The notes under the pieces were generated by a model. The model searched no databases. It was not told where the DNA came from and was given only the letters and a program-made list of their open reading frames with translations. Of a stretch of DNA of 64,000 nt, positions 1-17,472 are shown piece after piece. Made by a program: the position numbers and the translations under genes. Positions within the stretch are counted from its first letter, which is position 1. Every line of letters begins with the position of its first letter. The DNA comes from an uncultured Planctomycetota bacterium (GTDB taxonomy: Bacteria > Planctomycetota > Planctomycetia > Isosphaerales > Isosphaeraceae): the NCBI GenBank assembly GCA_963823665.1, contig CAWGMQ010000007.1, forward strand, positions 512,001-576,000, written 5' to 3'.

Positions 1-454
1 GTACTTTGAAAACGGGCTCCAGGGCCTCGGCGCGCAAGTGGGAATCGGCGTCTCCAGCCCGAATCCGATCCCGATCTCGCCCCTGCCGATCTCGCCTGTT
101 CCGCCATTTACGGGCATCGGCGCGAACGTTTCCACACAACAGGTCGGCAGCCGCGAGCTGTTCACCTTTACGCTAACGAACTACGAGAACCAGCCCGTGA
201 GCATCATGGGCTCCTCGGGCGCCGCCAGATTCGTACTGAAGAAAAACGGCAAGGTGATCTGGCGTTCGACGGCAAAGGTGAAGCTCGCCACGCGCGCAGC
301 CCAATCCCTCGCGCCCGGAGACGCCATCCAGCTCCACGCCAATTGGCCCGCCCCGGCCCGCCAGGCCAGCGTCAAGGGCGGCGGCAAGCCAGCTCTCTAC
401 CAGTTGACCGCAACCTCCGGCGGCCACACCGCAACAACCGTATTCGAGCTTTAG
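1..454 (+). CDS. 3' part of a probably secreted protein ending in a BsuPI-like (Ig-fold proteinase inhibitor-like) domain; 5' end outside window
   Basis: Frame is open from base 2; FTFTLTN...FVLKKNGKVIWRS...LAPGDAIQLHANW pattern. Confidence 0.45.
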   Translation, partial: YFENGLQGLGAQVGIGVSSPNPIPISPLPISPVPPFTGIGANVSTQQVGSRELFTFTLTNYENQPVSIMGSSGAARFVLKKNGKVIWRSTAKVKLATRAAQSLAPGDAIQLHANWPAPARQASVKGGGKPALYQLTATSGGHTATTVFEL

Positions 455-467
455 CCCGCGGTTCCCA

Positions 468-487
468 GTAGGTCAGGCTTCAGCCTG
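468..487 (+). repeat. GTAG-type REP-like palindrome
   Basis: gtaggtcaggcttcagcctg: GTAG foot plus caggct/agcctg hairpin; related copy at 33175-33196 on the minus strand. Confidence 0.55.
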
Positions 488-867
488 GGGTGCTTCGGGC
501 ATCTGTTCAAGGCGACCCCTCCCGCCTCCTCCGGTCCGCCTCCGCGTTCATCTGCCTGCACATCTCATCCATTTCCTTCTGGTACCGCTCCATCCGCTCC
601 TTCTGAGTTTGAACCCGAATCGGAGCCGCTGCAGTTTGACTACCGGCCCGCCGACTTGGGCCTCAGTTTCAGTCGCGCTCATGTCCACCTCCTGAGCTTC
701 GCCGGCGAAAGGTAAGATTGCAGCCCGCCAACCTGAAGATCTCCAGACGCTATGACCGCCTCCATCGCGGAACTGACAGATGTCCTAGGATGATCGTAAC
801 AAATACCGCTCGTCCCGCCAATGTGCGGCTCCGGCCCCCATTTCCAGTCGCACAGCCGCGCCCGGCC

Positions 868-1722
868 CTACTTCGGTCGTTCCTGCGACGGTTTCCTCTC
901 GAGGGGCGGCCGCTCAAGTTTGAGTCCGCCGACAGTCACCCCGACGAGATCATTCGGATGAAACGGCTTGATTGCCGATCGGATCTGGGCGGCCGCCTCC
1001 TCAGCCTTGGATTCGTCGTCAAGCTGCACGACGATTTGCGTGAGCTGATACTCCTCGACCTCCTGCACACCTCCCCGCACGTTCACGATCCGTTCACCGA
1101 AACGTAGCCTGCAAGTATTGAGAGGGATATACACGTCCATATCCGATGCCGTCACGGCAGGCCGTTCTCCGTCGCCGGTCTTGCCCCCGCTTGGTTTGGT
1201 CACGCCCACGACCGTGTAATAATCGGTGCCGCACTTCACTGTCTCACCGAGCGGGTTTTGGTCCGGGAAGAGTGCTTGAGCCGCGCCTGCGCCCAGGACG
1301 GCATGGTTCTCATACTTTGCGTCGTCATCCGCAGTCAAGAATCTTCCGCGGTCGAGCTCGAGTCGTGCGAACGCGGCATACTCGTGCGTCGTCCCGACAA
1401 GATAGCCGTCCAGGGACTTGTCTTGGTGACGAATCTGCTTGGGCAACTCGCGAATCGGCAGTACCCGCTTGATCGCCGGAACGGCCGAGACCAGGCGATC
1501 AAAGTCGCCGTATTTCAGTCCGTAACGGACAACTCGACCGGGCTGGTTGCCATCCACGCTCGGCCTCTTCGACCAGACGGCAACGCAGCTTGATGGCCGC
1601 GGCGGCTTCTCACGCGTCGCCGAGGCCGCGCCGCCATCCTGTGCGGTTCCTGTGCTGACACCGCCGCCGACACTCGGGAAAATCACGAGCGCAGAAACGA
1701 GCAATGCGAATTTCCGTGTCAT
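868..1722 (-). CDS. MacB-like periplasmic core domain protein (ABC permease periplasmic domain, no FtsX TM part)
   Basis: GRFLTADDD, AVLGAGAAQALF, YTVVGV, DVYIPL motifs; N-terminal signal peptide. Confidence 0.75.
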   Translation of the reverse strand: MTRKFALLVSALVIFPSVGGGVSTGTAQDGGAASATREKPPRPSSCVAVWSKRPSVDGNQPGRVVRYGLKYGDFDRLVSAVPAIKRVLPIRELPKQIRHQDKSLDGYLVGTTHEYAAFARLELDRGRFLTADDDAKYENHAVLGAGAAQALFPDQNPLGETVKCGTDYYTVVGVTKPSGGKTGDGERPAVTASDMDVYIPLNTCRLRFGERIVNVRGGVQEVEEYQLTQIVVQLDDESKAEEAAAQIRSAIKPFHPNDLVGVTVGGLKLERPPLERKPSQERPK

Positions 1723-1939
1723 CGGTTGGGCTCTTCGCGAGTCGGATTCGATCTTACCACATCCCGACGTGGAAGTGGCCGAAGACGCGCTCGCCAGGCC
1801 AGTGCCAAACCGATTGCCGCGGGACGTCCGCTACGCCACGCTGTTCGACCAGTCAACACTCCACTCCTGAAGCTGTGTGACGATGCGCACCACTATCCGG
1901 TAGAATGCACTGGTTCGCCTGATCTAGAGGAACACGACC

Positions 1940-2422
1940 ATGAAGAACGACGCCTCATTGCGCCAGCACGTCCTCGAGCTGCTCAAGGGCGGTCACGCCC
2001 ACCTCGATTTCGACAAGGCGATCGCCGGCTTACCTGTCAAGCTTCGAGGCAAAAAGCCCCCCGGCCTGCCTCACACGCCCTGGCGACTGCTCGAGCACAT
2101 GCGAATCGCCCAGTGGGATATTCTCCGCTACAGCGTCGACCCCAAGCACGTCTCCCCAGAGTTTCCCGCCGGCTACTGGCCAACGGGCGATGCACCACCC
2201 GACTCGGCGGCTTGGGACCAATCCGTCGCGGCCTTCCGCGCCGACCTGCAAGCGATGATGGACCTGGTTTCCAACCCCGCGACCGACCTGTTCAAACCGA
2301 TCGGCCAGGACCAGAACCACACGATCCTCCGCGAGGCCCTCCTCATTGCCGATCACAACGCCTACCACCTGGGCCAGCTCGTCACCGTCCGCCGTCTCCT
2401 CGGCGCCTGGCATGATGAGTAG
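1940..2422 (+). CDS. DinB family protein
   Basis: [14 protein letters not shown] and [16 protein letters not shown] motifs; RBS gagga upstream. Confidence 0.9.
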
Positions 2423-2513
2423 GATCCGCCCCGACCGTCTTCACGACCTGTCCACACTTTGCTTTTACACCCGCTCTCTGTTGTTATGGATGGATACGGG
2501 AGGAAAGACCCCA

Positions 2514-3137
2514 ATGACGAATCCGCAAGCCGAAGACCCCCTCGGCAAGGTCGTCCTTGCCTCGCAGATGATCATCGGCGCGCTGATCACCGGCCCAATC
2601 CCCGTGCTGATCATCGCGTTCTTCATCGGGCCCGTACTCGGACAGCCGCCCCCTGGCGCAGTGCCACCCGGCGGTGCCGCCGCCGCGGGCCAGGCGTCGA
2701 ACGAGCCGCTCAACACGATCCTCTCCTATGCGGCGTTCGGCGCAGGCACGCTGGCATTACTCGTCTCGGCCATCGTGCCGCGATTCACGTCCTCGAGCGT
2801 AAGCAAGTCCGTCGCCCCGACCGCGCCCGCAGCGCAGCCCGGGAAGAGCGCCGGCAAAGGCAAGCGACCCGGGCCTCAAACAGCCGACGAGCTGCGGACC
2901 AAGCTGCTCCCGCAGTTTCAACAGCAGCTCATCGTCCGCGCCGCCATCCTCGAGGGCGCGGCCTTCTTCGGAGCGACTGCATACCTCCTGACGGGAAACC
3001 CGGTGCCCGCCTGCGTCACCGTCGCGCTCCTGGTCACAATGCTCGTCGATTTTCCCACCAGGACCCGCGTTGACTCCTGGCTCCAGCGGCAACAAGAAAA
3101 ACTCCGGGACGACGAATTCGCCCACTCGCCGGTTTGA
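2514..3137 (+). CDS. hypothetical membrane protein
   Basis: Several hydrophobic segments, AILEGAAFF and FPTRTRV motifs, ggagg upstream. Confidence 0.7.
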   Translation: MTNPQAEDPLGKVVLASQMIIGALITGPIPVLIIAFFIGPVLGQPPPGAVPPGGAAAAGQASNEPLNTILSYAAFGAGTLALLVSAIVPRFTSSSVSKSVAPTAPAAQPGKSAGKGKRPGPQTADELRTKLLPQFQQQLIVRAAILEGAAFFGATAYLLTGNPVPACVTVALLVTMLVDFPTRTRVDSWLQRQQEKLRDDEFAHSPV

Positions 3138-6005
3138 TCGATTGGGAGGAAGATCAGTTGAAATGGTTTCTCGCACTCGCGCTCGTGAGCTTGCCGCACT
3201 TCTGCCCGGCGCTCGGCCACGCGCAGACAGGCTCGCCGCTGCCCGCCGCTGGCGGAGACGCCAAGAAGGCGACGGCGATCCTTACGAGGCAGTGTCTCAA
3301 GTGCCACGGCCCCGATCATCCCAAGGGCGGCCTCGACCTGAGCCGCCGCGCCGCCGCGCTCAAGGGTGGAAAAAGCGGCGTCGTGCTGGTGCCGGGCTCG
3401 CTGGACGAGAGTCTGCTCCTGGACAAGATCGCCGGCGGCGAGATGCCCCCGAATAATCCGCTCCCACCAGACCAGATCGAGACCCTGCGCACCTGGGTTC
3501 AATCTGGAGCACACTACGCCAGCGAGCCCCTCTCGCTCCCCCGCGCCGGGCCTGATTGGTGGTCGCTCCGGCCGATCCGAAAAGTGGTGGTTCCATCGCC
3601 ACGAAGAGCAGGCTCAGTCTGGGCCAAGAATCCCATCGACGCATTCATTCTTGCGAAGCTCGCCGCAAGCGGCCTCTCCCCCGCTCCCGAAGCTCCGCGC
3701 GCCGCTCTCATCCGCCGCCTCTCTTTCGACCTGACCAGTCTGCCGCCTTCGCCCGAAGCAGTCGACCAGTTCGTTGCCGACCCCGATCCCCGCGCTTATG
3801 AGTTGCTCGTCGACCGGCTGCTGGCGTCCCCGCATTACGGCGAGCGCTGGGGCCGCCACTGGCTCGACGTCGTCCGCTTCGGCGAGAGCGAAGGCTACGA
3901 AACCAACCTGCCGCGGCCGAATGCCTGGCCGTATCCGTGACTACGTCATCCGCGCCTTCAACCGCGACACGCCGTTTCCGCAGTTCGTGCTCGAGCAGCT
4001 CGCGGGCGATACGCTCGATGATGGTCATCCAGGACACGCCGTCGACTGGCTCACCCAGTCGGCCACCGGCTTCTTAGTCGGCGGATCGCACGACGTCGTC
4101 GGCAACCAGACCGTCGAAGGGATGCTCCAGCAGCGTGCCGACGATCTCGACGATATGATCACAGCCACCGGCACCACGTTTCTGGGCCTGACACTTCAAT
4201 GTGCCCGCTGCCACGACCACAAGTTCGATCCGATCACTCAAAAAGATTATTATGGAATGCAAACGATCCTGGCCGGAGTGACCCATGCCGAGCGCGCGAT
4301 CGCAGCGCCCGACGCCGACGCTCGCTTGCGTCAGGCAGGCATCGTTCGAGCCGAGCTCACCGCGATCGAAGCGGGGCTCGATGCCACGGAGCCCCTCGCG
4401 CATCCTGGCCAGGATCGCCCGGCGCGTCCGATGGTCAACTTCCGGCGCAACGTCGAGCGATTCGCACCCGTGAAAGCCCGGATGGTGCGGCTGACGATTC
4501 TGGCCACCAGCAACCAGATCGAGCCGTGCCTCGACGAAGTGGAGGTTTACTCGGCTCCGGGCAACGGAACTCATTCGCCGCGAAACGTCGCCCTGGCAAC
4601 TGCCGGCGGCCGGGCATCAGCCTCGTCGGAATATCCCAATGCCGCGATCCACAAGATCGCTCATCTCAATGACGGACGCACCGGCAACAGCCAGAGCTGG
4701 ATCTCCAATTCCTCGGGGAAGGGGAGTGTGACGCTGGTCTGGCCTGAGCCGGTCACCATCGATCGCATCGTCTGGGGCCGCGATCGCGAAGGAATGTTCA
4801 GCGACCGCCTTGCGACCGAATACTACGTCGAGGCCGCCGTCGAGGCGGATCACTGGGCGGTCGTTGCCTCGTCGATCGATCGCGTGCCGTTCGATCCCAG
4901 GGCAAAGCCCGAGCCCGCCGCGCCCTCGCAGGTTGCAAGCGGCGATCAGCTTGAGCGCGCCCGCCTGGTGCGTCGCCAGGCCGAGTTGCGCACGCTGCTC
5001 GCCGACCTGGGCGCGACGGCGAAAGTCTACGCCGGAACGTTCAGCCAGCCCGGCAAAGGCTATTTGCTGGTTCGCGGCGATCCCACGCGAAAAGGGCCGG
5101 AAGTGCAGCCTGCGGGGCTCGCCGTGCTCAGGCCCGCACTCGTGCTCGACAAGGAATCGCCGGAGGCGTCCCGGCGAGCAGCGCTCGCACGCTGGATCGC
5201 CGATCCGGTCAATCCCCTCCCCGCGCGAGTGATGGTCAATCGGTTGTGGCATTACCATTTCGGCCGGGGACTCGTGGCCACGCCCAGCGACTTCGGCTTC
5301 AACGGCGCGCCCCCCTCGCACCCCGAGCTGCTCGACTGGCTGGCAAGCGCTTATGTCGAAGGCGGCTGGCGGCTCAAGCCCTTGCATCGGCTGATCGTCA
5401 CCTCGGCGACGTATCGCCAGTCAAGCCGGCTCAATGAAAAAGCGCAAGCCATCGATCGCGACAACCGGCTGCTCTGGCGGATGACCCCACGCCGCCTCGA
5501 GGCCGAGCCGATTCGAGACGCGATCTTGGCGTCGAGCGGCAAGCTCGACTCGCGAATGGGCGGGCCCGGATACAACGTCTGGGAAAAAAACACGAATTAC
5601 GTCGCGATCTATAAACCACGAGCCGAGCTGAGCGGCGACGCATTTCGCCGCATGGTCTACCAGTTCAAGCCCCGCAGCCAGGGCGACCCGACATTCGCCG
5701 CCTTCGACTGCCCCGACGCCGCGCTCGCCGTCCCCAGGCGCAACGTCTCGACCACCGCACTCCAGGCTCTGAACCTGCTCAACAGCGAGTTCGTTATCCG
5801 CCAGGCCGCGTTTTTCGCCGAGCGCCTGGAGAAAGAAGTAGGGTCCGATCCCGCCCCGCAGGCGAAGCTCGCTTTTCGCCTGGCGTTCGGCCGCAGTCCA
5901 ACGCAGCCCGAGCTCACCGCCGCCGTGTCGCTGATCAAATCGCATGGAGCGACAGCCCTCTGCCGGGCGCTGTACAATGCGAATGAGTTCATTTACGTTC
6001 CCTGA
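3134..6005 (+). CDS. Planctomycete cytochrome c (PSCyt1)/DUF1549/DUF1553 protein with discoidin-like insert; frameshift near 3935
   Basis: CLKCH, YGERWGRHWLDVVRF, CARCHDHKFDPI, RVMVNRLWHYHFGRGLV, ALQALNLLN; two overlapping ORFs join at NAWPY|RDYVI. Confidence 0.92.
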
Positions 6006-6035
6006 GCAGGATCTCGAATGAGATCGAGGCGTCTG

Positions 6036-6470
6036 ATGGAAACGAACACCATGGGGATCACTCTTGTCACCGCGTTAATCGAGAATCAAGAGGATATCAA
6101 GGCCGCCCAACTTGGCATAATTCCGGAAACGAGTATCCGGCGTTTCGAAGTTGATGACGCTCGAGTTGATACGGGCGCGACGTTCGTCGCCATGCCCAAG
6201 CGACTGATCGACCAATTGGGCCTCAAGAAGATCAAGACGGTCGAGGCCAAGACCGTGTCCGGACTCATGAAGTTTGGCATCTACGACCAGGTCAAACTCA
6301 CGATTCAAGGTCGCGACTGCGAAGTGCGAGTGTCGGAAGTTGCCGACAACCGTCCGGTCTTGATCGGGTACATCCCACTCGAGCTGCTCGATTTCGTTGT
6401 CGCCCCCAGGGAGCAGAAACTGATCGGCAATCCCGATCACGGGGGCCAATACATGATCGACATGTACTGA
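6036..6470 (+). CDS. retropepsin-like clan AA aspartic protease
   Basis: Catalytic VDTGAT motif and C-terminal LIGYIPLELLDFVV. Confidence 0.88.
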   Translation: METNTMGITLVTALIENQEDIKAAQLGIIPETSIRRFEVDDARVDTGATFVAMPKRLIDQLGLKKIKTVEAKTVSGLMKFGIYDQVKLTIQGRDCEVRVSEVADNRPVLIGYIPLELLDFVVAPREQKLIGNPDHGGQYMIDMY

Positions 6471-6536
6471 AATACGCCAGCTCTGGTAGAACTGGCACGC
6501 CCGCCGGACGCTTCCACCTGCTACGAGGTGCAATCC

Positions 6537-6782
6537 ATGGAGTCAGCGAGTGTGGGAAGAGTGCTCGTTTCGGCGAAGATCGAGAACGTAATCTATGGGC
6601 CGGTCCGTTTGACGATCGCCGGACGGCAATGTTCGGTCGACGTCTCGGAAGTGGCGGACACCTGCCCGGTGATCATCGGCTACGTCCCGCTCGAGCTTCT
6701 GGACTTTGTGGTTGATCCTAAGGGCCAGCGACTGATCGGAAATCCCGATCACGGCGGCGAGTTCATGTTCGACATGTATTGA
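6537..6782 (+). pseudogene. paralog of the aspartic protease with an in-frame deletion of ~63 codons removing the DTG active site
   Basis: KIEN joined directly to VIYGPVRLTI; C-terminus IGYVPLELLDFVV..LIGNPDHGG matches the upstream gene. Confidence 0.8.
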
Positions 6783-6803
6783 AGAACACTGGCGGTTGCC
6801 GGC

Positions 6804-6854
6804 ATGCTCGGAAATCCCGAGCACGGTGGCGATCCGATGCTCGATATGTTCTAA
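6804..6854 (+). pseudogene. third copy of the protease 3' end (16-codon ORF MLGNPEHGGDPMLDMF)
   Basis: 51-nt ungapped alignment to 6420-6470 and 6732-6782. Confidence 0.7.
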
Positions 6855-6863
6855 ATGAGAGGC

Positions 6864-7034
6864 AGTGGTGGCGGCGCTCCAAGCATGTGGAGAGGCCGTC
6901 TCTGGCGGTCTTCTCGACGCTCCGGGGTTACCCCGGGGGCGAAAGTTAGCGGTTCATTTCAGCGCGTGATGCTGGGTGCGCTCGTCGCGCACGACCCATC
7001 ACGCTGGACAAGACCGGTTGGAGCCGCCACCACT
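6864..7034 (+). ncRNA. retron msr-msd non-coding RNA (predicted)
   Basis: a1/a2 inverted repeat 6864-6882 and 7018-7034 (17 bp, 2-nt bulge); G6883 in AGC opposite G7017; hairpins 6890-6915, 6918-6941 and 6960-7006; lies upstream of a retron-type RT. Confidence 0.8.
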
Positions 7035-7038
7035 TCAC

Positions 7039-7112
7039 CCCAACGCGGCGACGCCGCAATGTTGGGCGCGGGTCTCCGACCCCGCCCCCTTCCGTGACCG
7101 CAGGTCTCCGAG
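7039..7112 (+). repeat. hairpin plus REP-like element (gggcgcgggtctccgaccccgccc...gaccgcaggtctcc)
   Basis: Palindromes cccaac..gttggg and gggcgcggg..cccgccc; resembles planctomycete intergenic repeats (from recollection). Confidence 0.4.
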
Positions 7113-7127
7113 ACGCGCGCACAGCGC

Positions 7128-8498
7128 ATGGATACAGCAGACGAAGACCCTATGAAGGTAAAAACGTCTCGCGACTCGCTGATGGAATACCTGGCGCAGG
7201 CGTTCCTCGCCGGTCCCTTGTCGGTCGACGGCCTGGTTGAACGCGCTGGCTTGGTTCTGGGCCGTCGCTACCGTTGGCTGCCACCGCTCGCCGCGAGAAT
7301 TCAAGCTCACTTCGCCGGCAAAGAGCGAATCCCTCAATCGCAGCTCGTCGCCTTCCTGCGTGACGACAAAGGATTTCGGCGAGCGTGCGAAACGCGAAAT
7401 CTGAAGGTGCGTTTTGTGCACTGGTCTGATCCAGTGATGGCTCCGGCCCCGGGCTTGCCGCGTTCCTGGAAAGTCCCCGCCATCACCACCCCCGCCGAGC
7501 TGGCCGGCTTCCTCAACATCACGCCGAACGAGCTCGACTGGTTCGCAGACATCCAGGGTCGCGAGCGCATCTGCCGGGTCGAGCCGATGCGTCACTACCG
7601 GTATCGCTGGGTGGCCAAGCGCTCGGGCTCGTTCCGCCTGATCGAAGCACCCAAGCCGCGGTTGAAGGGATTCCAGCGCGTCGTGCTCGACGCGATCCTG
7701 GCGCACATTCCTCCGCACGAAAGCGCACACGGCTTTCGCCCCGGCCGCTCGATCAATTCGTTCGTCGCGCCTCATGTGGCCCGCCCGGTCGTGCTCAAGA
7801 TGGACCTCCGTGATTTCTTCGTGTCGATCACCAGCGCGCGGGTGACCGCGATTTTCCTGACCGCCGGATATCCCGAGCCCGTCGCCCGGCTCCTGGCGGG
7901 GCTATGCACCAACACCGTCCCGGCGGAGGTGTTGAACCAGGTTGGACGCCCGGATCCGAATTCGGTCCGGTCGACGATGTCATGGCAAGACCAGCGTCCC
8001 TACTGCCTTCCGCACCTGCCCCAGGGGTCGCCCACTTCGCCGGCTCTGGCCAACCTCGCTGCCTACCGCTTCGACACGCGGCTGGCTGCTCTTTCGGAAG
8101 CTGCGGGCGCCGACTACACCCGTTACGCCGACGACTTGTTGTTCTCAGGCGATTCATCCTTCGCCCGCTCGGTTCGCCGATTCACGGTTCAAGTCGCCGC
8201 GATCGCCCTCGAGGAGGGCTTTGCCATCGCTCACCGCAAGACACGCGTGATGCGACAAGGCGTCTGCCAGCGCGCCGCCGGAATCGTGATCAATCAGAAA
8301 ATCAACATGCCGCGCGATGACTACGACCGGCTGAAGGCCATATTGAACAACTGCATCAAGCACGGCCCAGCCGGGCAGAACCGAACTGCCGTCGCCGACT
8401 TCCGGGCCCACCTGTCGGGCCGTGTCGCGCATGCAATCCGGCTCAACCCACACCGGGGTGAGAAGCTGAGGGGGCTCCTCAGACAGATCGAATGGTGA
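7128..8498 (+). CDS. retron-type RNA-directed DNA polymerase (reverse transcriptase) with N-terminal extension
   Basis: HYRY, RLIEAPKPRLK, AHGF, MDLRDFF, LPQGSPTSPALAN, YTRYADDLLFSG; no maturase or endonuclease domain seen. Confidence 0.93.
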   Translation: MDTADEDPMKVKTSRDSLMEYLAQAFLAGPLSVDGLVERAGLVLGRRYRWLPPLAARIQAHFAGKERIPQSQLVAFLRDDKGFRRACETRNLKVRFVHWSDPVMAPAPGLPRSWKVPAITTPAELAGFLNITPNELDWFADIQGRERICRVEPMRHYRYRWVAKRSGSFRLIEAPKPRLKGFQRVVLDAILAHIPPHESAHGFRPGRSINSFVAPHVARPVVLKMDLRDFFVSITSARVTAIFLTAGYPEPVARLLAGLCTNTVPAEVLNQVGRPDPNSVRSTMSWQDQRPYCLPHLPQGSPTSPALANLAAYRFDTRLAALSEAAGADYTRYADDLLFSGDSSFARSVRRFTVQVAAIALEEGFAIAHRKTRVMRQGVCQRAAGIVINQKINMPRDDYDRLKAILNNCIKHGPAGQNRTAVADFRAHLSGRVAHAIRLNPHRGEKLRGLLRQIEW

Positions 8499-8530
8499 GT
8501 CGCTCGCGGTGAAGCCTCCATCGCCGAACC

Positions 8531-8559
8531 TTGATTGCAACCGTAAACGGTAGTAAGAT
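8531..8559 (+). promoter_or_regulatory. sigma70 promoter with palindromic operator for the TA operon
   Basis: TTGATT-N17-TAAGAT with ACCGT-aa-ACGGT (8540-8551) in the spacer; similar motif at 14276-14296. Confidence 0.65.
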
Positions 8560-8589
8560 TAGAGACGCAATTCGATTCCGGGGCCTGGG

Positions 8590-8916
8590 ATGAGACTGCA
8601 TCATTCGTTCGAGTGGGACGAGGACAAGGCGGTCAAGAACCGGAAGAAACACAATGTGTCTTTCGACGATGCTGCACGAGTGCTCGCGGATAACGAGGGA
8701 GGCTTCTATCACATAGAAGAGTTCGACGATCTCCACAACGACGATGAGGACCGGTACATCACAACCGCGGCCCACCCGGACGACCGACTGATCGTTCTTC
8801 GCATCACATGGACCGACCGGTCCACTCGCTCTCAACCGATCACTCGAATTATCAGTGCCCGACTCGCGACGAGACTCGAGAGGAAGAATTATGCGCAAGA
8901 AATCAAAAACAAGTAG
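8590..8916 (+). CDS. brnT: BrnT family (DUF497) ribonuclease toxin
   Basis: FEWDEDKAVKNRKKHNVSFDDA, EDRY, RIISAR, ERKNY motifs. Confidence 0.9.
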   Translation: MRLHHSFEWDEDKAVKNRKKHNVSFDDAARVLADNEGGFYHIEEFDDLHNDDEDRYITTAAHPDDRLIVLRITWTDRSTRSQPITRIISARLATRLERKNYAQEIKNK

Positions 8917-9373
8917 GGTCATCAAAAAGAACGCCGCCGATATATCACCAGCGACAAACGAAGATCTCGTTCGCCTTCGCAACGCGATGGTTGGACAAAT
9001 CGACACATCAGAAATCGCCGAGCGCAGGCGAACACCCGATCGGCTCCTGCGCGATTCAACAGGCCGACTCCCGTCTCGAAGGAGCATTGTGCGAGACGCG
9101 ATCGTGCGTGAGCTCAAGCATCTCAAGATGACGCCCTACCGCCTGTGGAAGGAGGCCAGGGTGCATTGCCCCACCCTTTCCCAGTCCGCAGTTCACGAGT
9201 TCATTAAGGGTCAAAGGCAACTCGAGCTTCCTTACGCAGAAGCCCTCATGATGGCGACGCACCTCGGAATCGTTCGCAAGCAAGCTGGTGGTGGGCTGAA
9301 AAAGGTGAGATTACGTCGCACTGCTCTTGCGAACGTGCAGTCAAAAGCCGGTCTGACCCGTCGCGAAGATTAA
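8891..9373 (+). CDS. putative antitoxin: BrnA-like N-terminal motif plus C-terminal XRE-like HTH
   Basis: Overlaps the brnT 3' end; IDTSEIAE motif; [23 protein letters not shown]-like segment. Confidence 0.7.
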
Positions 9374-9423
9374 AAACCTCCACCGACCGCCAGACCTTGA
9401 ATCTCTCAATGAGGCTAGCGCCG

Positions 9424-10911
9424 ATGCCCGCTCGACGAACCCTACTCCTGGCCCGCCACCTCCTCGACCGCCGCAATTTCCTCGCCCACATGGCAACCGG
9501 CATGGGCGGAATTGCCCTGGGCGCTTTACTCGCCGAGGATGGGCTCCTGGCAGCAGATGACACTTCCGAATCCAAAAAGAACACGGCCGCTCCGGGTAGT
9601 CCGCTCGCATCGAGACCGCCGCATTTCCCCGCCAAAGCCACTCGCGTCCTGCACATCTTCTGCACCGGCGCCGTCAGCCATCTCGACACCTGGGATTACA
9701 AGCCCGCCCTCTGGAAGCGCGACGGCCAGCCCATGCCCGGCGTCGAGAAATTGATCACATTTCAGGGCGAAAACGGCAACCTCGCGCGCAGCCCATGGAC
9801 ATTCCGCCAGCGCGGCCAGACCGGCAAATGGGTCTCCGACCTCCTGCCGCATCTCGCCGAACGTGTCGACGAGATGTGCTTCATCCATTCGCTGACATCG
9901 AAGACCAACACGCACGGCCCGGGCGAAATGTTCATGAGCACGGGCTTCACCCTCGAAGGCTTTCCCAGCGCCGGCGCGTGGGTCAGCTACGCGCTGGGCA
10001 CCGAGAACCAGGACTTGCCCGCCTACGTCGCGATTCCCGACCCGCGCGGCGACCCGCAACAAGGTCCCGCCAACTGGACGAATGGCTTCCTGCCGGCTGT
10101 CTATCAGGGCACCGCGTTCAACGCCGGCCGGCCAATCAGCCATCTGGCGCGGCCAAAACAAATCTCGCCCGGCGACGATGTCGCCGCCCGTGATTTCCTC
10201 AGCTTGCTCAACGATCTGCACCTGAAGCAGAACCCGGGCGACGCCGAGCTTTCAGCGAGGATCGCCGCCTACGAGCTCGCCGGCCGGATGCAGCAAAGCG
10301 CTCCCGAAGTCGGCAACCTCTCGCAAGTAAGCCCGGCGACGCAGGCGCTCTACGGGCTCAATTCCCCCAACCCGCTCACCGCCGCCTTCGGCCGGAACTG
10401 TTTGCTGGCGCGCCGTCTTCTCGAGCGCGGCGTGCGATTCGTCACGCTCTACAACGGTGCCTTTGCCATGGGCGAAGGCGTGCTCAACTGGGACGGCCAC
10501 CGCCGCATCCAGTCCGATTACAACCGTCACGCCCCGATCCTCGACCAACCCGCCGCAGCCCTCTTGATCGACATGAAGAGCCGCGGCCTGCTCGACGACA
10601 CCCTGGTCGTCTGGACCACCGAATTCGGCCGCATGCCGACATTCCAGAAGGGAACTCAAGGCCGCGACCATAACCCGAAAGGCTTCACCGCCTGGCTCGC
10701 CGGCGCAGGCGTCAAGCGCGGCTTCAGCTTCGGTGCAACCGACGAATTCGGCTATCAAGCCTTGGAAAACGTGGTCGACGTCCACGACTTCCACGCAACC
10801 ATCCTGCACCTGCTCGGCCTCGATCACACCAGGTTGACCTACAACCACAACGGCACATCCCGCCGACTCACCGACGTGCACGGTCACGTTATCAAGGACG
10901 TGCTGGCGTAG
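9424..10911 (+). CDS. DUF1501 domain protein (Tat-exported, sulfatase-like)
   Basis: DRRNFL twin-arginine motif, [47 protein letters not shown]. Confidence 0.93.
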
Positions 10912-10915
10912 CAGT

Positions 10916-13100
10916 TCAATTCCCAAACTCTTCCTGGACGGTCGACTTATCATCGACCAGCACGAACGACTCGAACTTGGCCGTGAATGTTCTCTTCGAC
11001 AAGTTCGAGGCGCACAGCCCGACTTTCACCTTGGACGGATAATCCAGCGTGAAGTCATGGAAAACCCCCAGGCTACGCCCGTCATCAAAGCTGAACAGAC
11101 ACGTGAACTTATCCCCATTTCGCACGACGAACAGGATCATCGGCGCTTTCGGATCGCCGGGCAGCGGGATATAAGCATATGCGATCTCCTGGCCGTGGCG
11201 CACCACCTCGACCAGAAGCTCGCGGTACTGCAATACCCCCTTCGCCCGGCAGGCTCGCTCCAGCCGCAGGAAGTTTTCTTTGTCTTGATAGATCAATATC
11301 CCGGCGGACTGGTGGCAGATCCCAAGGCTCCGCCCCCGCGGATCCTTGATCGCATCGAGCCCCGGATTGATATCGCCGCTCACCTCGACGAACGCCGCGA
11401 AATCGCCCACGACCTCCGCGAGTGTCCGAGGCGCGTTGTGCACCGGCTTCTTTTGCTGCGTCTGCACCTTCGGCGAAAGGCTGAAGGCCTGATTCGCCGG
11501 AATCGAGATCGTGACCAGATGCTTTCCGCGATCCTTCGTCAAGCTGCATTCGTTCTCTTCCTTCGAGCCGGCTTTCTCGACGAGCGGCCCGAGCTTCGCG
11601 AGGCTCTTGCCTTCAAGACGGTTCCGCAGCTCCTCGATTCGACCGCCGTCCGAGATCGGCCCTTTCTGAACTGGCAGAAGCCACGACCGCGGCGGCGAGA
11701 GAATCGTTTTGCCTCCTTGGTCCACGTGCGAAGTTTGGATCAGTACTTTGCGTGCATCGGGGCCATTCTGCCCCAACGAGACGTGAATCTGCCCCTTGGC
11801 CATCCCGTTCTCGACGCTGAGATCGGCCGACGCGGCTCCTTCGATCGCCGGCCAGCTTCCGTCGGCAAGCGGGGCAGATGTTCGCCCCTGTGCCGGTGCA
11901 ATCAACACCTTCACACTCTTGATGCGCCGGTTCGGGTCGACGAGTTGGACCTTCACTTGCAGCTCGGGCGTCGGCGAGTTGTCCGTCATGTTAAAAAGCC
12001 GCATCGCCCCCACTCGCCCCGCCAGCACCCCGCGCAAGTCAGCCGCCGGAATCGCAAAGCCGATGTTGGCACCTTCCAGCTTCGCAACGGCCACTCCCAG
12101 CAGCCGCCCCTGCTCATCAACCAGTGGTCCCCCGCTGTTTCCCGGATGCAGCGCTCCGTCCAGCTTGAGCGAGACAAGCTGCCCATGCTCGTCGTTCATC
12201 AGGCTCGATATCGTTCCCCCCGCAACCGAGATCGGCGGGTTCCCCTTGTTGAGGTTGAGCAGATCAGCGTACGGAAACCCATAAACCGAGTATTTCATCT
12301 GTAACGACGGAACGGTCGGAACCGCCGGATCAATCGGCTTGACCGCCTTCTTGAGCCCTCGCACCCGCAAGATGGCCAGGTCGTGGTTCAGCTCGCGCGA
12401 GTAGTCCATCGCCACGATCTCCGCCGGCAGCGACTCCTCAAACGCCGGTCCCTGCCCGCTGCGGAAAACCGCCGTGATGTCGGCTTTCCCGCCGTCATCC
12501 GTTTCCGCATCGGCAACGTGCCGGTTGGTCGCCAGCAGAACCGCGTCTTTCTCGGCCCTGATCACAAACCCGCTGCCGCCGCCGATGAGCATGCCGTGAC
12601 TCGAGAGCTTCAGGTAAACCGTGGCGTCTTCGAGCGCCTTCTTGCGCCGCGCCGCGGCGTCCGCGTGTTCTTGCTCGATCGTGACCGGCGGCGGCACCGG
12701 CGGTGGCACCGGAGTGCGGTCCGGCGGGGGGATGACCTCTTGTTTCACTTCAAGTTGCGGCTTGTCGCTTTGCCTGGATGGGATGCGCACGACCACGACT
12801 ACCAGAAGCAAAGCGCAAACCCCGCCGATTCCGATGGCCGCGTAAACCGCGGGCGAAGTTGCGCATCGGCTCGGGTTGTGCCGATCGTCGTGTGGAGGCC
12901 AGCGGCAGCGGCCGAACGGCGGCCGTGCGATCTTCTTCGAGCATCGCCGCGAGCGTCCCCGTCGACTGCGCCGCCCCGGATTTCGGGGCCGCCACGAGGA
13001 ATGGTTGATGACATCCCGCACACTTGACGCGCTGACCGCGCATCGCTTCAGGAAGCGTGCCGCGTTTCTCACAGAATGGACAGGTGACGGGAATGCGCAT
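10916..13100 (-). CDS. zinc-ribbon/TM/trypsin-like serine protease with C-terminal beta-sandwich (DUF1349-like); frameshift near 12870
   Basis: CPFC..CAGC N-terminus, GSGFVI, TNRHV, DLAIL, HPGNSGGPL triad motifs. Confidence 0.85.
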
Positions 13101-13349
13101 CACACACCTCCTCGATGATCCTCGGGCGACTCTTGGTCGAACCAACACGTGATATGGCTAGGTACGCACCGGTTCGAGATTCCTTTCGCCGTGATGTGCG
13201 GAAGTCGGAAAAAAAGCTGACGGTGACGTCAATGTCAGCGCGTGGCGACGGTAGCACAGCCGGAGCCTCGCACCGCCTTCCGATTTTCAGTAAGCTTTCG
13301 AGAGGTTTGACCTATCAGAAAGGAAAGCAGCTTTCGGAGGGCCAGCTCA

Positions 13350-14058
13350 ATGGCGGAACCAGAGCCCGCGACTTGCCCGCGCTGCGGCGCCCCACTCTCG
13401 GCCGACGGCCCGGCCGGACCCTGCCCGCGCTGCCTCGTGGCTGACACCCAGGCTGAGAAGGCAGAAATCCCACCCGTCAGTCCGTCATCCCCGAAACGGG
13501 CGCGCCGCAAGCCGATCCTGCTTTTTGCAGTCGCGGCCGCCGTGCTCGCCGCGGGTCTCTGGTTCGGTCTCAGGTGGGCGCGGCAGCAGCCTGACGGCGC
13601 CGGAGTCCTTCTCAACCGCGGCGCCGACTTGCGTCGCGAGGGGAAGCTGGACGAGGCGATCGCCGCGTACCGTGAAGCGATCCGCCTCAAGCCCGACTTC
13701 GCCTACCCGTACGACAACCTCGGCACCGCCCTACGAGCGCAGGGGAAGCTGGACGAGGCGATCGCCGCCTACCGTGAAGCGATTCGCCTCGATCCAAAGC
13801 GTGACTACGACGAAGCCCTGGTGCTTTCCCGCAAAAGGGCGTCGAGCTCAAGGCAGAGGAGGGAAGCGCCTACCGGACGCTGGCGCTGGTGCACCGGCAG
13901 CAAGGTGACAAGGACCAGGCCCGCAACTGGTTCGACAAGGCCGTCGCGTGGACCAAGGAGAACGCCCCGAGAACATCGGCCTGCGCCAGCTCTGGACCGA
14001 AGCGGCCCAGTTGCTGGGCCAGCCGGGGCCGGAGGCCGCCGCCGAGAAACCGCGTTGA
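13350..14058 (+). pseudogene. TPR protein made of kinase-type N- and C-termini without a kinase domain; frameshifted
   Basis: CPRCG..CPRCL start, TM segment, 102-bp repeated GKLDEAIAAYREAIRL, C-terminal GDKDQARNWFDKAVAW in a shifted frame. Confidence 0.6.
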
Positions 14059-14127
14059 GTGACGATCGACGGCTCGCCGAACGGCAAGGAGCATCACCGC
14101 ACCGAGCCGGCTCCGACGTGATCTGCT

Positions 14128-14152
14128 GTAGGAGGGAGCTCCGTCTCCCGAC
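14128..14152 (+). repeat. GTAG-type REP-like element
   Basis: gtaggagggagctccgtctcccgac: GTAG foot plus gggag/ctccc hairpin. Confidence 0.45.
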
Positions 14153-14339
14153 CCGATCACATGATCTGCCCTATATTCCGGCTATTACGCAACCGGGCGG
14201 GAAACCTTACAAGGCCACGCTGGTTTTTGCGGGGCATTGCGGTCGTGCAATGGCTGCCCCGCGATCCTAGTCGTCTTGATAATTACCTTTAACGGTACGA
14301 CCGTGGCCTGAGAAGCTGGCGAGGCAATAAGGAAACAAT

Positions 14340-14781
14340 ATGCCCAAGCAATCAAAGGCAGGTAAGATGATCCGGCAGATCCGCAGGCGATGGCCCTGCG
14401 ACGACGGCGCTGGACCTGGAACGCCTCAGGGAGACAATGCGCCGCGCTGTCCGAACGGACGATATACCGGAGTTGAAAGGAACTGAAGCTCCGGTCTGCC
14501 GCGACGCGTCGGGCAATCTACCCGTAAGACGGCTAGGACCGATGCGTCGGGCCATTTTGGAAGCGCTCGACGATCACAAAATGACGCGATACGAATTATG
14601 GAAGAAGGCCCGCGCCCATTGCGGCACGCTGTCGCGGTCGGCAGTCCATGAATATTTAAGGGGCGCCAGGGACATTGGGGTCGAATACGCCGAAGCCTTG
14701 ATGATGGCTGCAAATTTGAAAGTCGTTGGACAAAGCCGGGCCAGACCGAAGGGACCGAGCGCAGGTCGCCTGAAAGCGTAA
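14340..14781 (+). CDS. orphan paralog of the 8891-9373 antitoxin (frameshift near 14380)
   Basis: [51 protein letters not shown] align with 8891-9373. Confidence 0.75.
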
Positions 14782-14789
14782 CGCTATTT

Positions 14790-14865
14790 TCTCCGGGCAG
14801 AGGCCCTGCGCTGCATTGGCAGGTATTTCCTGCCCACAATCTGGACAGCGCTCATTCTCCGCCAT
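14790..14865 (-). pseudogene. N-terminal stub of a Ser/Thr kinase following the ECF sigma gene
   Basis: MAENERCPDCGQEIPANAAQGLCP resembles [11 protein letters not shown] (start of kinase at 20712); breaks off after ~25 codons. Confidence 0.65.
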
Positions 14866-14951
14866 CAGAAAGCCCCCTGCGCAGACTTCGGGTGGACCGC
14901 TTCCCCCCAGTACGCATCGTTGCGGAAAACCTTACAGCGCCATCACGGAAT

Positions 14952-15689
14952 TCATCGCCGCATTGCCGCGAACAGGTCGCGGATCTCGTCATCGATCTGC
15001 GCCGGGTCGTCAAGCGTGGCGGCGATCTGGTCCTTGAGGATCTCACGGTAACGCTTGCGGAGCTGATGGGTTGCGCCGTGCACGGCCCCCTCGGTCGTTC
15101 CCAGCCGTTCGGCCAGCGTTGCGGCCGAAACAGCTCCGTTGCCCTCGGTCAACACGACCTTGAGATGCGCGAATGCTTCGGCTCGGCCGGATTCGGCGTA
15201 TTCGCCAGCCAGCAGGTCGAGGACTCGGCCGAGCAGCGTGACGGCCCAGGCACGCTCGAACAGCCGGTCTGGCGTCATCGTGTCATCCGGCTCGAATCGG
15301 TAACGGCTTTCTGCGTCTTGCGCGTCGATCGAGATCAGGCCGATTTCGCCACCGCGCTGAATCGCCTTGGCGCGGCGGTGCTCGCTGATCAGGAAGTGTT
15401 CGCAGTCGGTTCAAATGAAAGAGCGAAAGCGTCCCTTGCGAGGGTCGGCCGCGGCGAGCACCGGCTTCTCCAGCAGCCGGGCGAAATAGCTCTGGGCCAA
15501 GTCCTGCGACTTCTCGGCGTCGTTTCCTTTCCGTCGGATGAACACATAGATGGGGTACCAGTACGCCGAGCACAACTCGGCCAGGGCCGACCGGGCTTCG
15601 GGCGTCGCCAGATCGGCCGCCGCGACGACTTTGCTCCATCGAGTTGATGGGAACTCCGATGGCGCACCGTTTGGACTGGGATTCACCAT
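14952..15689 (-). CDS. ECF sigma-70 factor (planctomycete kinase-associated type); frameshift near 15412
   Basis: FPSTRWSKV, LCSAYWYPIYVFIRR, KGRFRSF, FERAWAVTLL, LRKRYREIL. Confidence 0.9.
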
Positions 15690-15961
15690 GAGCGTCTCCA
15701 CCATACTTGAATGCCGTACGGCGCACGAACGACGCCGGGACGGGATTTCTGAGATGGCGATCGGGTATTGTGCCGGCATCATTGCCCGTTCACGGTCATC
15801 GTTCAGCGTATCGCCTTCGATTCGCCCGAACAAGAAACTTATTCGGGCGGGCTAAGATACAGGAATCTCGCACGTTGATCATAGTGGCAAGACCGCATTT
15901 TCTGCGTGGATGGATGAGACGACGGACGGATTATCCTCGTTCCAAAGCAAGGAGCTGTCCG

Positions 15962-16330
15962 ATGAAGCTCACGGCCGAGTTCGACCCTGATTTCGTCGCC
16001 GTGCCCCGGCCCAAGTGCCGGCGGATTCGTATCTGGCGGCTGGTGATCCTTTCCGCGCCGCTGGCCGCTCTCGCGCTGGCATTCGCAAACACGAATCCAG
16101 CGCCCGGCTCGCCGATGATTGCGCAGGCCCTCGTCCCCGCACCAGCGCGCGTCGGCCTGTCCAATTTGCAGGCAGGATCGGACTCGTCGCTCCGGTTGAC
16201 GGCGGTGCCCGGAGACCATTTCATCTGGCTGGCCAGTCCGGCGATTGATCCTGAAATGGTTCATGTTGCACCGAAAGGGATCGACGAGGAGATGGTCATA
16301 CCGGCCAGCGATGGGCGGGCGCCGCGTTGA
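15962..16330 (+). CDS. hypothetical protein
   Basis: aggag RBS, TM segment, repeated IDPEMV/IDEEMV. Confidence 0.55.
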   Translation: MKLTAEFDPDFVAVPRPKCRRIRIWRLVILSAPLAALALAFANTNPAPGSPMIAQALVPAPARVGLSNLQAGSDSSLRLTAVPGDHFIWLASPAIDPEMVHVAPKGIDEEMVIPASDGRAPR

Positions 16331-16446
16331 GGTGAACTGTGACTTCCGTTCGCGCACCGATCGTCTTTTCCGTCCCGCTCTTGAGAGTGGATAACGCGGG
16401 GGCTGATCATAATCGGTTCAGGAGGCGGATCAGCGGCCTTCGCCAA

Positions 16447-16959
16447 TTACCCATTCTGACAGTAACGTGCCGCCGCTCCGGGTCGAACCACAAATCGAGA
16501 TTGTTGTTTAGAAATGCCGGAAGTCCCAGCAACGGCACGCGGGCCCGGCGAAACCCTTTCGTCCTTATAGACGGCAATTCCTTTGGCCATCCGCAGTTGG
16601 CACGGCGGCCGGTCGCTGGCCATGTCGAGTTGGCCGGGAATGTTCGGGTGTAGCCAGACTGTCGCACGCTGGAGGGTTGCGGCCTGCCTGTTGATCTCGA
16701 TCTCCCCAAGGACCACCAATAGTCTCGGGTCGACCCCTGCCCAATCACGAAGTTGCTGCTCGCGCAGAGAGAAGTCGAAGTTGTTCCCTGTGTCTAGCAG
16801 CGCGGGAAACCTCGGAGTCTTCTCGTCCGGCTCGTGGACCCCGGCCAGGCTTACACTCAGCCACACCAGAACCTGGTCCCGGTGGAGCGTGATGTATCGA
16901 TCTCCGAATCGTAGCGACGCGCGCTTCTCGGGAATCGGCAGTCGGTCGAGGATCTTCAT
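16447..16959 (-). CDS. retropepsin-like aspartyl protease family protein
   Basis: FPALLDTGNN motif; C-terminal PLLGLPAF is in a shifted frame near 16545. Confidence 0.75.
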   Translation of the reverse strand: MKILDRLPIPEKRASLRFGDRYITLHRDQVLVWLSVSLAGVHEPDEKTPRFPALLDTGNNFDFSLREQQLRDWAGVDPRLLVVLGEIEINRQAATLQRATVWLHPNIPGQLDMASDRPPCQLRMAKGIAVYKDERVSPGPRAVAGTSGISKQQSRFVVRPGAAARYCQNG

Positions 16960-17411
16960 GCGGGTTCGGCGGGAGTTTCATGCGTCGCTTCGTAAAGCGA
17001 CCAATCGGATTCGAACGTACCCCAGGGAGGAATCCCGTCCGGATCAGCTTCCAACTTGCCGACGTAGAACTCCTCGTGTTTGAGTCCCCGGCGGAAACAC
17101 TCCTGATAGGCGTCGACATCCGACCGAGTAATAGCCACTCGCTCGTCGCCGTGGTATGCCGCCCACTTCTTCCGATACCGTTTGATTTTCAGGAGCTCCG
17201 GCAGGTCTCGCCAGAACGCCTTCTGCGATTGAAGCACCAGCGGTGGAATCTCCGAACACGGCTCCCTCGCGGGTCGCTCCTGCACCGCCGCGAGGCGCGC
17301 GTACACGTCGGCCCGGACCAAGACATAGGAATCGTGTGTCAAGGGATCGATTATTCGCACTGGCTCGCCGTGCGCCACTGCCTGCCGCTGCTCGGGGTCG
17401 AGTTCGATCAT
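16956..17411 (-). CDS. DUF5678-like protein coupled to the protease gene
   Basis: AFWRDLPELL, KWAAYHGDERV, YQECFRRGL; 4-bp overlap with the downstream gene. Confidence 0.7.
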   Translation of the reverse strand: MIELDPEQRQAVAHGEPVRIIDPLTHDSYVLVRADVYARLAAVQERPAREPCSEIPPLVLQSQKAFWRDLPELLKIKRYRKKWAAYHGDERVAITRSDVDAYQECFRRGLKHEEFYVGKLEADPDGIPPWGTFESDWSLYEATHETPAEPA

Positions 17412-17472
17412 CGACGTCCTCCACCATGATCGTATCGGAAAATCAGGAATGAAACCAGATAATACGACTCCT

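Follow-up and report, generated by a model that had tools for sequence, protein, structure and literature searches.

The window analysed here is the whole stretch of 64,000 nt at positions 512,001-576,000 on the forward strand of contig CAWGMQ010000007.1 (assembly GCA_963823665.1). It carries a structured ncRNA followed by a reverse transcriptase (RT) gene, with protease reading frames upstream and a toxin gene downstream. Positions are those of the window, and the features are given below.

6018-6470 and 6528-6782, forward strand: two clan AA aspartic-protease ORFs (Pfam), the second internally shortened; passengers
6804-6854, forward strand: clan AA aspartic-protease C-terminal remnant, a 16-codon tail that abuts the ncRNA and occupies the site of the TTGAC -35 box of the relatives
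6864-6882, forward strand: a1 arm of the terminal inverted repeat (sequence, fold), of which the inner 6 bp covary in 50 homologues (helix 1, two-sided changes in 5/6 pairs)
6883, forward strand: predicted branching (2'-OH priming) G, unpaired in the MFE fold; G in 49/50 rows of an alignment that was anchored on G..G
6890-6915, forward strand: msr hairpin 1 (fold), variable in sequence and length among homologues
6920-6938, forward strand (6918-6941 including outer pairs): msr hairpin 2, near-invariant across phyla, 99.3% of cells paired
6939-6963, forward strand: A/T-rich linker, likely the region where reverse transcription stops; 51% A+T against 33% elsewhere in the 50-row alignment
6964-7004, forward strand: msd hairpin of two stems with a 4x4 internal loop between them (helices 3 and 4, 91.5% and 85.2% paired)
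7017, forward strand: opposing G, a G in 50/50 alignment rows
7018-7034, forward strand: a2 arm (sequence, fold, covariation)
7042-7151, forward strand: REP-like dispersed repeat insertion of 110 nt, not part of the retron; absent from the related loci L001, L002 and L008
7152-8498, forward strand: clade-11 (outgroup) retron RT, 448 aa, intact frame (Pfam, PADLOC, PDB and Foldseek matches, tree)
7152-7400, forward strand: N-terminal five-helix domain of the RT, about residues 6-82 (models with pLDDT 93 and 85; profile search)
8590-8916, forward strand: BrnT-family toxin gene (Pfam); passenger
8891-9373, forward strand: antitoxin-like ORF overlapping the BrnT gene, with no Pfam or PADLOC match; passenger

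The a1 and a2 arms (6864-6882 with 7018-7034) form a 17-bp duplex with one 2-nt bulge. This pairing had been proposed in a first-pass annotation and was borne out by sequence, fold and covariation. The annotation had also set G6883 against G7017; both are unpaired and opposite in the MFE fold, and the G..G closure is common in homologues. Its two msr hairpins, at 6890-6915 and 6918-6941, were both present in the fold. The long bulged hairpin that it placed at 6960-7006 was found as well, but in another register: homologues keep G6964-C7004, and 6960-7006 is an alternative register because T7005 allows pairing. Folding of the RNA, which the annotation had suggested as a check, was done on 6850-7060 and gave an MFE of -108.2 kcal/mol with a z score of -4.82, and 0/200 shuffled sequences were equally stable. 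The identical structure forms within a 421-nt flanked fold. An Rfam scan of window positions 1-20000 gave no family for the element. The lone match, RNase MRP with an E value of 0.15, lies outside the element and was taken as chance.

A GTDB scan gave 307 relatives of the RT, and the best 80 of the 307 were fetched. Upstream duplexes were scanned without a G filter in 80 sequences (79 loci and the window; L007 has no upstream DNA). The best duplex closed on G..G in 64/80 sequences, compared with 6/75 control stretches further upstream, and a duplex score of at least 15 was reached in 63/80 sequences and 9/75 control stretches. The RNA alignment was built from 50 sequences; it excludes 7 loci in which the scan gave no RNA that convinced, and 23 sequences that were near-duplicates or had parts deleted. 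Over 28 named pairs, 93.0% of the cells were paired, against 75.8% in shuffled and 33-48% in slid alignments. Two-sided changes were found in 212 cells compared with 46.9 after shuffling, to be read with the caveat that the structure was partly derived from the same sequences and that kin are not independent. This covariance check, also suggested by the first-pass annotation, thus gave helices that covary across 50 homologues, with two-sided changes in all four. They occur in 4/8 pairs of msr hairpin 2, where 3 pairs never vary, and in 11/14 pairs of msd helices 3 and 4. The columns of the 4x4 loop in the msd pair in just 8-19 of the 50 rows. The near-invariant msr hairpin 2 is the probable RT-recognition stem. 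Hairpin 1 is absent from the RNAalifold consensus of the homologues because its region aligns poorly.

A covariance model built from the 50-row alignment matched 53/57 further sources. All 24 family loci are among those matched, 3 of them being duplicate training rows. No match was found in L007, L009, L073 or the type XIII locus described below. Five matches were weak (30-44 bits), and the match in L072 lies about 4 kb from its RT. Burkholderia, Dietzia and Tsukamurella sequences scored 69.9, 53.6 and 29.8 bits. Variant forms of the element were seen in a few loci. At L017 (4699-4840), the msd hairpin is mostly deleted while a1/a2 and msr are intact, next to an intact RT. The RTs of L069, L076 and L080 belong to the Gimesia group; their N-terminal domain is degenerate and the ncRNA beside them divergent (L076 and L080 score 55-60 bits).

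The ORF at 7128-8498 encodes an intact RVT_1 protein. Three relatives lack the insertion at 7042-7151, so the RT most probably begins at 7152 rather than at 7128. The QGSPTSP and YADD motifs read by the first-pass annotation were located at 8022-8042 (residues 291-297) and 8124-8135 (residues 325-328) in an intact frame, together with D218. D218, Y325-A-D-D328, H208 and G377 are invariant in 56 aligned sequences. Region X reads FVAPH in place of NAXXH, and region Y reads AAG in place of VTG; only the H and the G agree. The H of region X and the G of region Y are named as the most conserved residues of those motifs in the available text of PMC7736814.

The PADLOC scores of the RT were 494 bits for RT_other, 466 for RT_outgroup, 298 for RT_XIII and 190 for RT_II-A, and the RT_other and RT_outgroup matches span nearly the whole protein, N-terminal domain included. 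All 25 PADLOC matches listed are retron-type or RT_other models. The PDB sequence matches were retron RTs or generically named RTs in 14/14 cases, and the top 17 Foldseek ranks with the pLDDT-93 RT model were retrons. Actinobacterial homologues also score best on RT_other and RT_outgroup. The PADLOC term "outgroup" was equated with clade 11 on the basis of the available text of PMC13712802.

A tree of 135 rows was made from 169 hits thinned by similarity, with a quick method, a midpoint root and our own hits only, so that Mestre's reference proteins are not among its rows. The window RT lies in a 75-row branch (SH-aLRT 100) together with Arthrobacter and Nakamurella. This branch spans planctomycete, verrucomicrobial, acidobacterial, proteobacterial and actinobacterial RTs; 59 viral-contig RTs and the type XIII RT of the host genome fall outside it. 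Within it, the 18 rows of the host's family fall in one 23-row branch (support 98) whose records are labelled Isosphaeraceae, Isosphaerales or Planctomycetota, which suggests vertical descent and makes Isosphaeraceae the probable family of the host. The phylogenetic placement that the first-pass annotation had called for thus gave a single clade, with matches to retron RTs by profile and by structure. Its broader reading, a planctomycete retron with an msr-msd layout and a priming G, is supported by the covariation, by these matches and by the tree. Its reference systems, Ec86 and Mx162, were not retained: RT_other and RT_outgroup outscore RT_XIII and RT_II-A, and no effector is linked. The RT scores point to clade 11 in Mestre's classification, whose retrons have no effector, and on every feature testable here the element is a member of it.

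Two further identities for the element were weighed; together they are very improbable and already largely refuted. One is a type XIII (Mx162-like) retron from which the SWIM and HEAT genes have disappeared. RT_XIII does rank third among the PADLOC models and type XIII is common in the family, but the outgroup models score 170-195 bits higher. The host genome has a real type XIII retron on contig C7, at a distance of about 200 kb (L097, 2075-7595). It consists of genes for HEAT-ARM, RT_XIII and SWIM, the last of them broken across two frames. Its RT shows the reverse order of scores (476 vs 359 and 343 bits), falls outside the clade and has no RNA-model match. The other is a non-retron RT beside a chance GC-rich fold, and the covariation across homologues excludes the chance fold. 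The host genome also contains 22 RVT_1 matches, including seven equal-scoring copies in 634-aa frames. Four of these seven lie 2-3 kb from a second RT match, and they are probably group II intron-type elements.

The N-terminal domain of the RT is basic and conserved, and solved retron RTs do not align to it. In the best 150 of 910 profile hits, it was seen only on clade-11 RTs or pieces of them: 65 hits run on into the RT up to their last residue, 51 stop within the domain or shortly behind it, and 34 carry unrelated tails that look like frameshifts. One column reaches 90% conservation and no residue is invariant. In L069, of the Gimesia group, the domain is degenerate and the RNA is kept. Foldseek gave nothing for the fold in the PDB at E <= 0.001; the best Z in a wide search was 5.3 and the best Atlas value was 0.77, figures that do not in themselves imply a new fold. 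Saposin- and bacteriocin-like matches (Z 4.0-4.6) were rejected as a common helical arrangement. The C-terminal end of the RT consists of thumb helices, with no fused effector.

The neighbourhood was then compared across loci. When the 3,080 ORFs lying within 5 kb were all compared with one another, no partner gene recurred. The recurring neighbours were lineage synteny, PSD1/PSCyt2, DUF1501 and ORFs overlapping the RNA; PSD1/PSCyt2 and DUF1501 are abundant planctomycete families. Pfam annotation of 150 of 153 flanking ORFs, picked by a heuristic and many without a match, gave mostly metabolic or housekeeping functions. At the window locus, PADLOC gave no match for four neighbouring ORFs. An NDT-like effector (type II-A3) was not found there, Pfam giving an aspartic protease and BrnT instead, and neither were SWIM, WGR or HEAT genes. 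Loose ancestral synteny was seen in the family, with an S9 peptidase gene upstream (L001, L101, L107, L111) and a DUF1501 gene downstream (L001, L008, L107, L109, L116 and the window). Genes split by frameshifts, RT homologues included, occur at window 3134-6005 and in L001, L008, L024, L038 and L062, and are likely assembly errors.

The BrnT gene has the orientation of the RT gene and begins 91 nt beyond its stop codon, which would suit a tripartite retron with this ribonuclease, or the upstream proteases, as effector. Such an arrangement is very unlikely. The BrnT gene comes with an overlapping antitoxin-like ORF of its own, and a search of the other fetched loci gave no BrnT homologue; in L008, nothing but the beginning of the antitoxin-like ORF is left. 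The clan AA proteases are likewise confined, among the fetched loci, to the window and a remnant in L008. Two side observations concern these passengers. The antitoxin-like ORFs at 8891-9373 and 14437-14781 are 47% identical, and only the first follows a BrnT gene. The protease gene at 6018-6854 is present in three tandem copies, each shorter than the last.

A TTGAC box lies 51-68 nt before the branching G in 67/93 sequences, compared with 97/5000 background windows. It is present in 21/25 family-level sequences, and a sigma-70-like promoter is thereby recognised in the relatives. The box is absent in the window and in its nearest relative, L008, and no sigma-70-like site lies nearer to the window retron than 5949-5978. 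The insertion at 7042-7151 is unique to the window copy. At least 68 matches to this repeat, itself included, were counted in the host genome when 40 of 148 candidates were scored, and such repeats often occur in tandem clusters with 65-90 nt spacing. Extra DNA between the ncRNA and the RT was also seen elsewhere: in L104 an ORF at about 230-1490 that is putatively TnpB-like (IS200/IS605 type) by its motifs, and in L023 and L052 about 300 extra nt. These cases indicate that the gap between a2 and the RT tolerates insertions.

These features raise the reading that a real clade-11 retron has fallen silent or is decaying here, its promoter lost first and the repeat inserted afterwards. The missing box, the 110-nt insertion before the start codon and an RT branch of 0.37, somewhat longer than the 0.15-0.31 of the nearest relatives, all speak for it. 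On the other side stand the intact frame and catalytic residues and the comparison with L008. Over 439 codons, dN is 0.087 and dS 0.59 (ratio 0.147), and single-site changes polarised to the window lineage comprise 37 synonymous and 9 non-synonymous ones, a count that omits 40 multi-hit codons, 18 unpolarised codons and 20 ties. Only 8/171 ncRNA positions differ from L008, none of them in the four covarying helices, which are thus unbroken. Five of the eight are paired in the single-sequence MFE fold: two in the a1 bulge (alternative register), one that turns a G-C into a G-U pair in hairpin 1, and two outside the conserved stems. By these codon counts, the RT is evidently under purifying selection. 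The promoter loss is common to the window and L008 and therefore predates the dS 0.59 divergence, and selection went on afterwards. This indicates read-through from co-oriented upstream genes, for which the clan AA protease ORFs are a possible source. Since the repeat arrived recently, a loss of translation caused by it might not yet show in dN/dS. A silent copy is nonetheless unlikely; judged from the sequence, the retron is likely active, with purifying selection continuing despite the lost promoter box and the repeat insertion.

Translational autoregulation, with the RT starting at the TTG that opens a2, was considered and rejected. This TTG is in frame in 30/95 sequences, which equals chance, and the arrangement concerns a close subclade only, not the window. 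The TTG is in frame with the RT in L002, L008, L101, L103, L106 and L111, and in L101 and L103 no other ATG, GTG or TTG start was found. Members of this subclade might thus have their RT start codon hidden by the a1/a2 duplex.

The mechanism proposed here follows that of known retrons. With its own -35 box lost, the RNA and the RT of this copy would be made by read-through from upstream co-oriented genes. The ncRNA would fold a1 onto a2, and the RT would bind msr hairpin 2 and prime on the 2'-OH of G6883. The opposing G7017 is presumably not copied, by analogy with Ec86, which would put the template start at 7016. Copying would then run from about 7016 back through the msd hairpin and stop in the A/T-rich linker (6960-6939). 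Termination before AT-rich sequence is reported in the available text of PMC10849725. A stop ahead of the ATTT tract would give a product of 57 nt and a stop at 6950 one of about 67 nt; copying as far as hairpin 2 would give the maximum of 78 nt. This DNA would fold into a hairpin containing a 4x4 internal loop, attached to the msr RNA by a 2'-5' link and staying bound to the RT. By analogy, a branched msDNA of 57-78 nt from a read-through transcript is the most likely outcome. The first-pass annotation had predicted an msDNA of about 60-70 nt complementary to about 6950-7017; its length falls within the range given here, but by the Ec86 analogy its template start shifts from 7017 to 7016.

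The RNA model found one copy each in 35/81 family genomes (11/33 high-quality genomes), and these are the same 35 genomes that hold this RT. The RNA lies upstream of the RT on the same contig in 34/35, and in the remaining genome the RT contig begins inside the gene. SWIM_XIII matches were found in 42/81 family genomes and are missing in 11/35 of the RNA-positive ones; the type XIII effector is therefore not a needed partner. Among the best 80 of 503 viral RT relatives, identity was at most 37% and the RNA model matched 0/80. One exact hairpin match in the viral search was rejected, having neither the full RNA nor a long ORF adjoining. At E <= 1e-40 there were also matches in seven plasmid records, every one of them typed as non-mobilizable.

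Taken together, the locus is very probably a standalone clade-11 retron inherited vertically in the host's planctomycete family, with a domesticated particle favoured as its role. For that role, an RT-msDNA particle that acts on a host protein encoded elsewhere, with the clade-specific N-terminal domain as contact surface, is our preferred reading, at somewhat under an even chance. It is favoured over an anti-phage system with the same retron chemistry, whose effector would be built in as the N-terminal domain or encoded elsewhere in the genome, a reading that is possible at about one chance in three. Characterised retrons are reported to be defence systems, the patchy presence in the family fits a dispensable defence gene, and the conserved basic five-helix domain is one to which solved retron RTs do not align. 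Against defence, the flanks are mostly housekeeping genes, with Fic, TIR-ATPase and nucleotidyltransferase occurring once each among 150 flanking ORFs; no member was found among the best 80 viral-contig RTs; the N-terminal domain lacks an invariant residue and is degenerate in L069, whose RNA is kept; and the 11 RNA-positive genomes without a SWIM_XIII match also count against it. The domesticated particle is thus kept as the preferred role. Clade 11 as a whole may, more doubtfully, be a toxin-free domesticated class with a role other than phage defence, in which the RT-msDNA particle would be the decoy or sensor of a host protein that handles DNA. On this reading, a single-copy RT under its own promoter, bearing the five-helix domain specific to the clade, would make a hairpin DNA whose unpaired 4x4 loop is conserved. 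This class would span Planctomycetota, Verrucomicrobiota, Acidobacteriota, Pseudomonadota and Actinomycetota.

As a retron the locus is ordinary, since clade 11 and its ncRNA families are published with planctomycete members listed. Domestication of clade 11 was already suggested by Mestre et al. (available text of PMC7736814); new here are the N-terminal domain, the promoter conserved among relatives and the one-to-one inheritance throughout the family. For the question of what effector-less retrons do, the value of the family lies in its 35 examples, all single-copy and inherited vertically, in which promoter, priming G and template are defined and which carry the N-terminal domain. GC-rich pairs of clade-11 RT and ncRNA are candidates for ssDNA production and recombineering, and a relative with an intact promoter is a better test subject than the window copy.

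Among known systems, clade 11 is the closest. In the available text of PMC7736814 (Mestre 2020), it is a branch of standalone msr-msd-RT cassettes that is essentially confined to actinobacteria and may have been domesticated, with its function left open. The SPIRE survey of 2026 (available text of PMC13712802) divides it into clade11-A (71) and clade11-B (39) with OutgroupA/B ncRNAs, includes Planctomycetota and gives it low priority; the string "isosphaer" was not found in 8 supplementary files of that paper. The window shares with clade 11 the standalone cassette without an associated gene and has its best profile matches there. Its homologues come from groups listed for clade11-A in the same text, namely Nakamurella, Arthrobacter, Paraburkholderia, Bryobacterales and Gemmataceae next to a PGM/PMM gene. 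The subfamily, judged only by taxon, leans to clade11-A rather than clade11-B. The window copy differs from other members by the lost promoter box and the repeat insertion. Clade-11 retrons were tested in the Khan preprint (available text of PMC10849725), where the clade is neither among the highest nor among the near-zero producers and so belongs to the "intermediate" ones; two were taken into recombineering, with donors placed by sequenced RT-DNA. "Outgroup" is not mentioned in the available text of PMC9252829. A literature search whose coverage excluded most subscription journals found no paper devoted to clade-11 function.

Retron-Eco1 (Ec86, type II-A3, clade 9) shares the a1/a2 duplex, the opposed Gs, the short msr hairpins and the long msd hairpin, and is the best PDB match by sequence (E 7e-24) and by Foldseek (E 3e-18, 24% identity). 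Unlike Ec86, the retron described here lacks an NDT effector gene, has CCAA instead of TTA before the branching G and AAG instead of VTG, and encodes a longer RT, to which a helical domain is added at the N-terminus. The type XIII retrons (Mx162, Mx65, Sa163; clade 10) resemble it in the nearest typed profile (298 bits), GC-rich hosts and reported vertical inheritance, whereas the window has no SWIM/WGR/HEAT genes at the locus and a different ncRNA family. The Retron-Eco5 (Ec107)-like orphans of clade 2 are likewise effector-less and chromosomal, with function unknown according to the available text of PMC7736814. The window RT belongs to a different clade and reaches 179 bits only against them, and it therefore represents an independent effector-less lineage.
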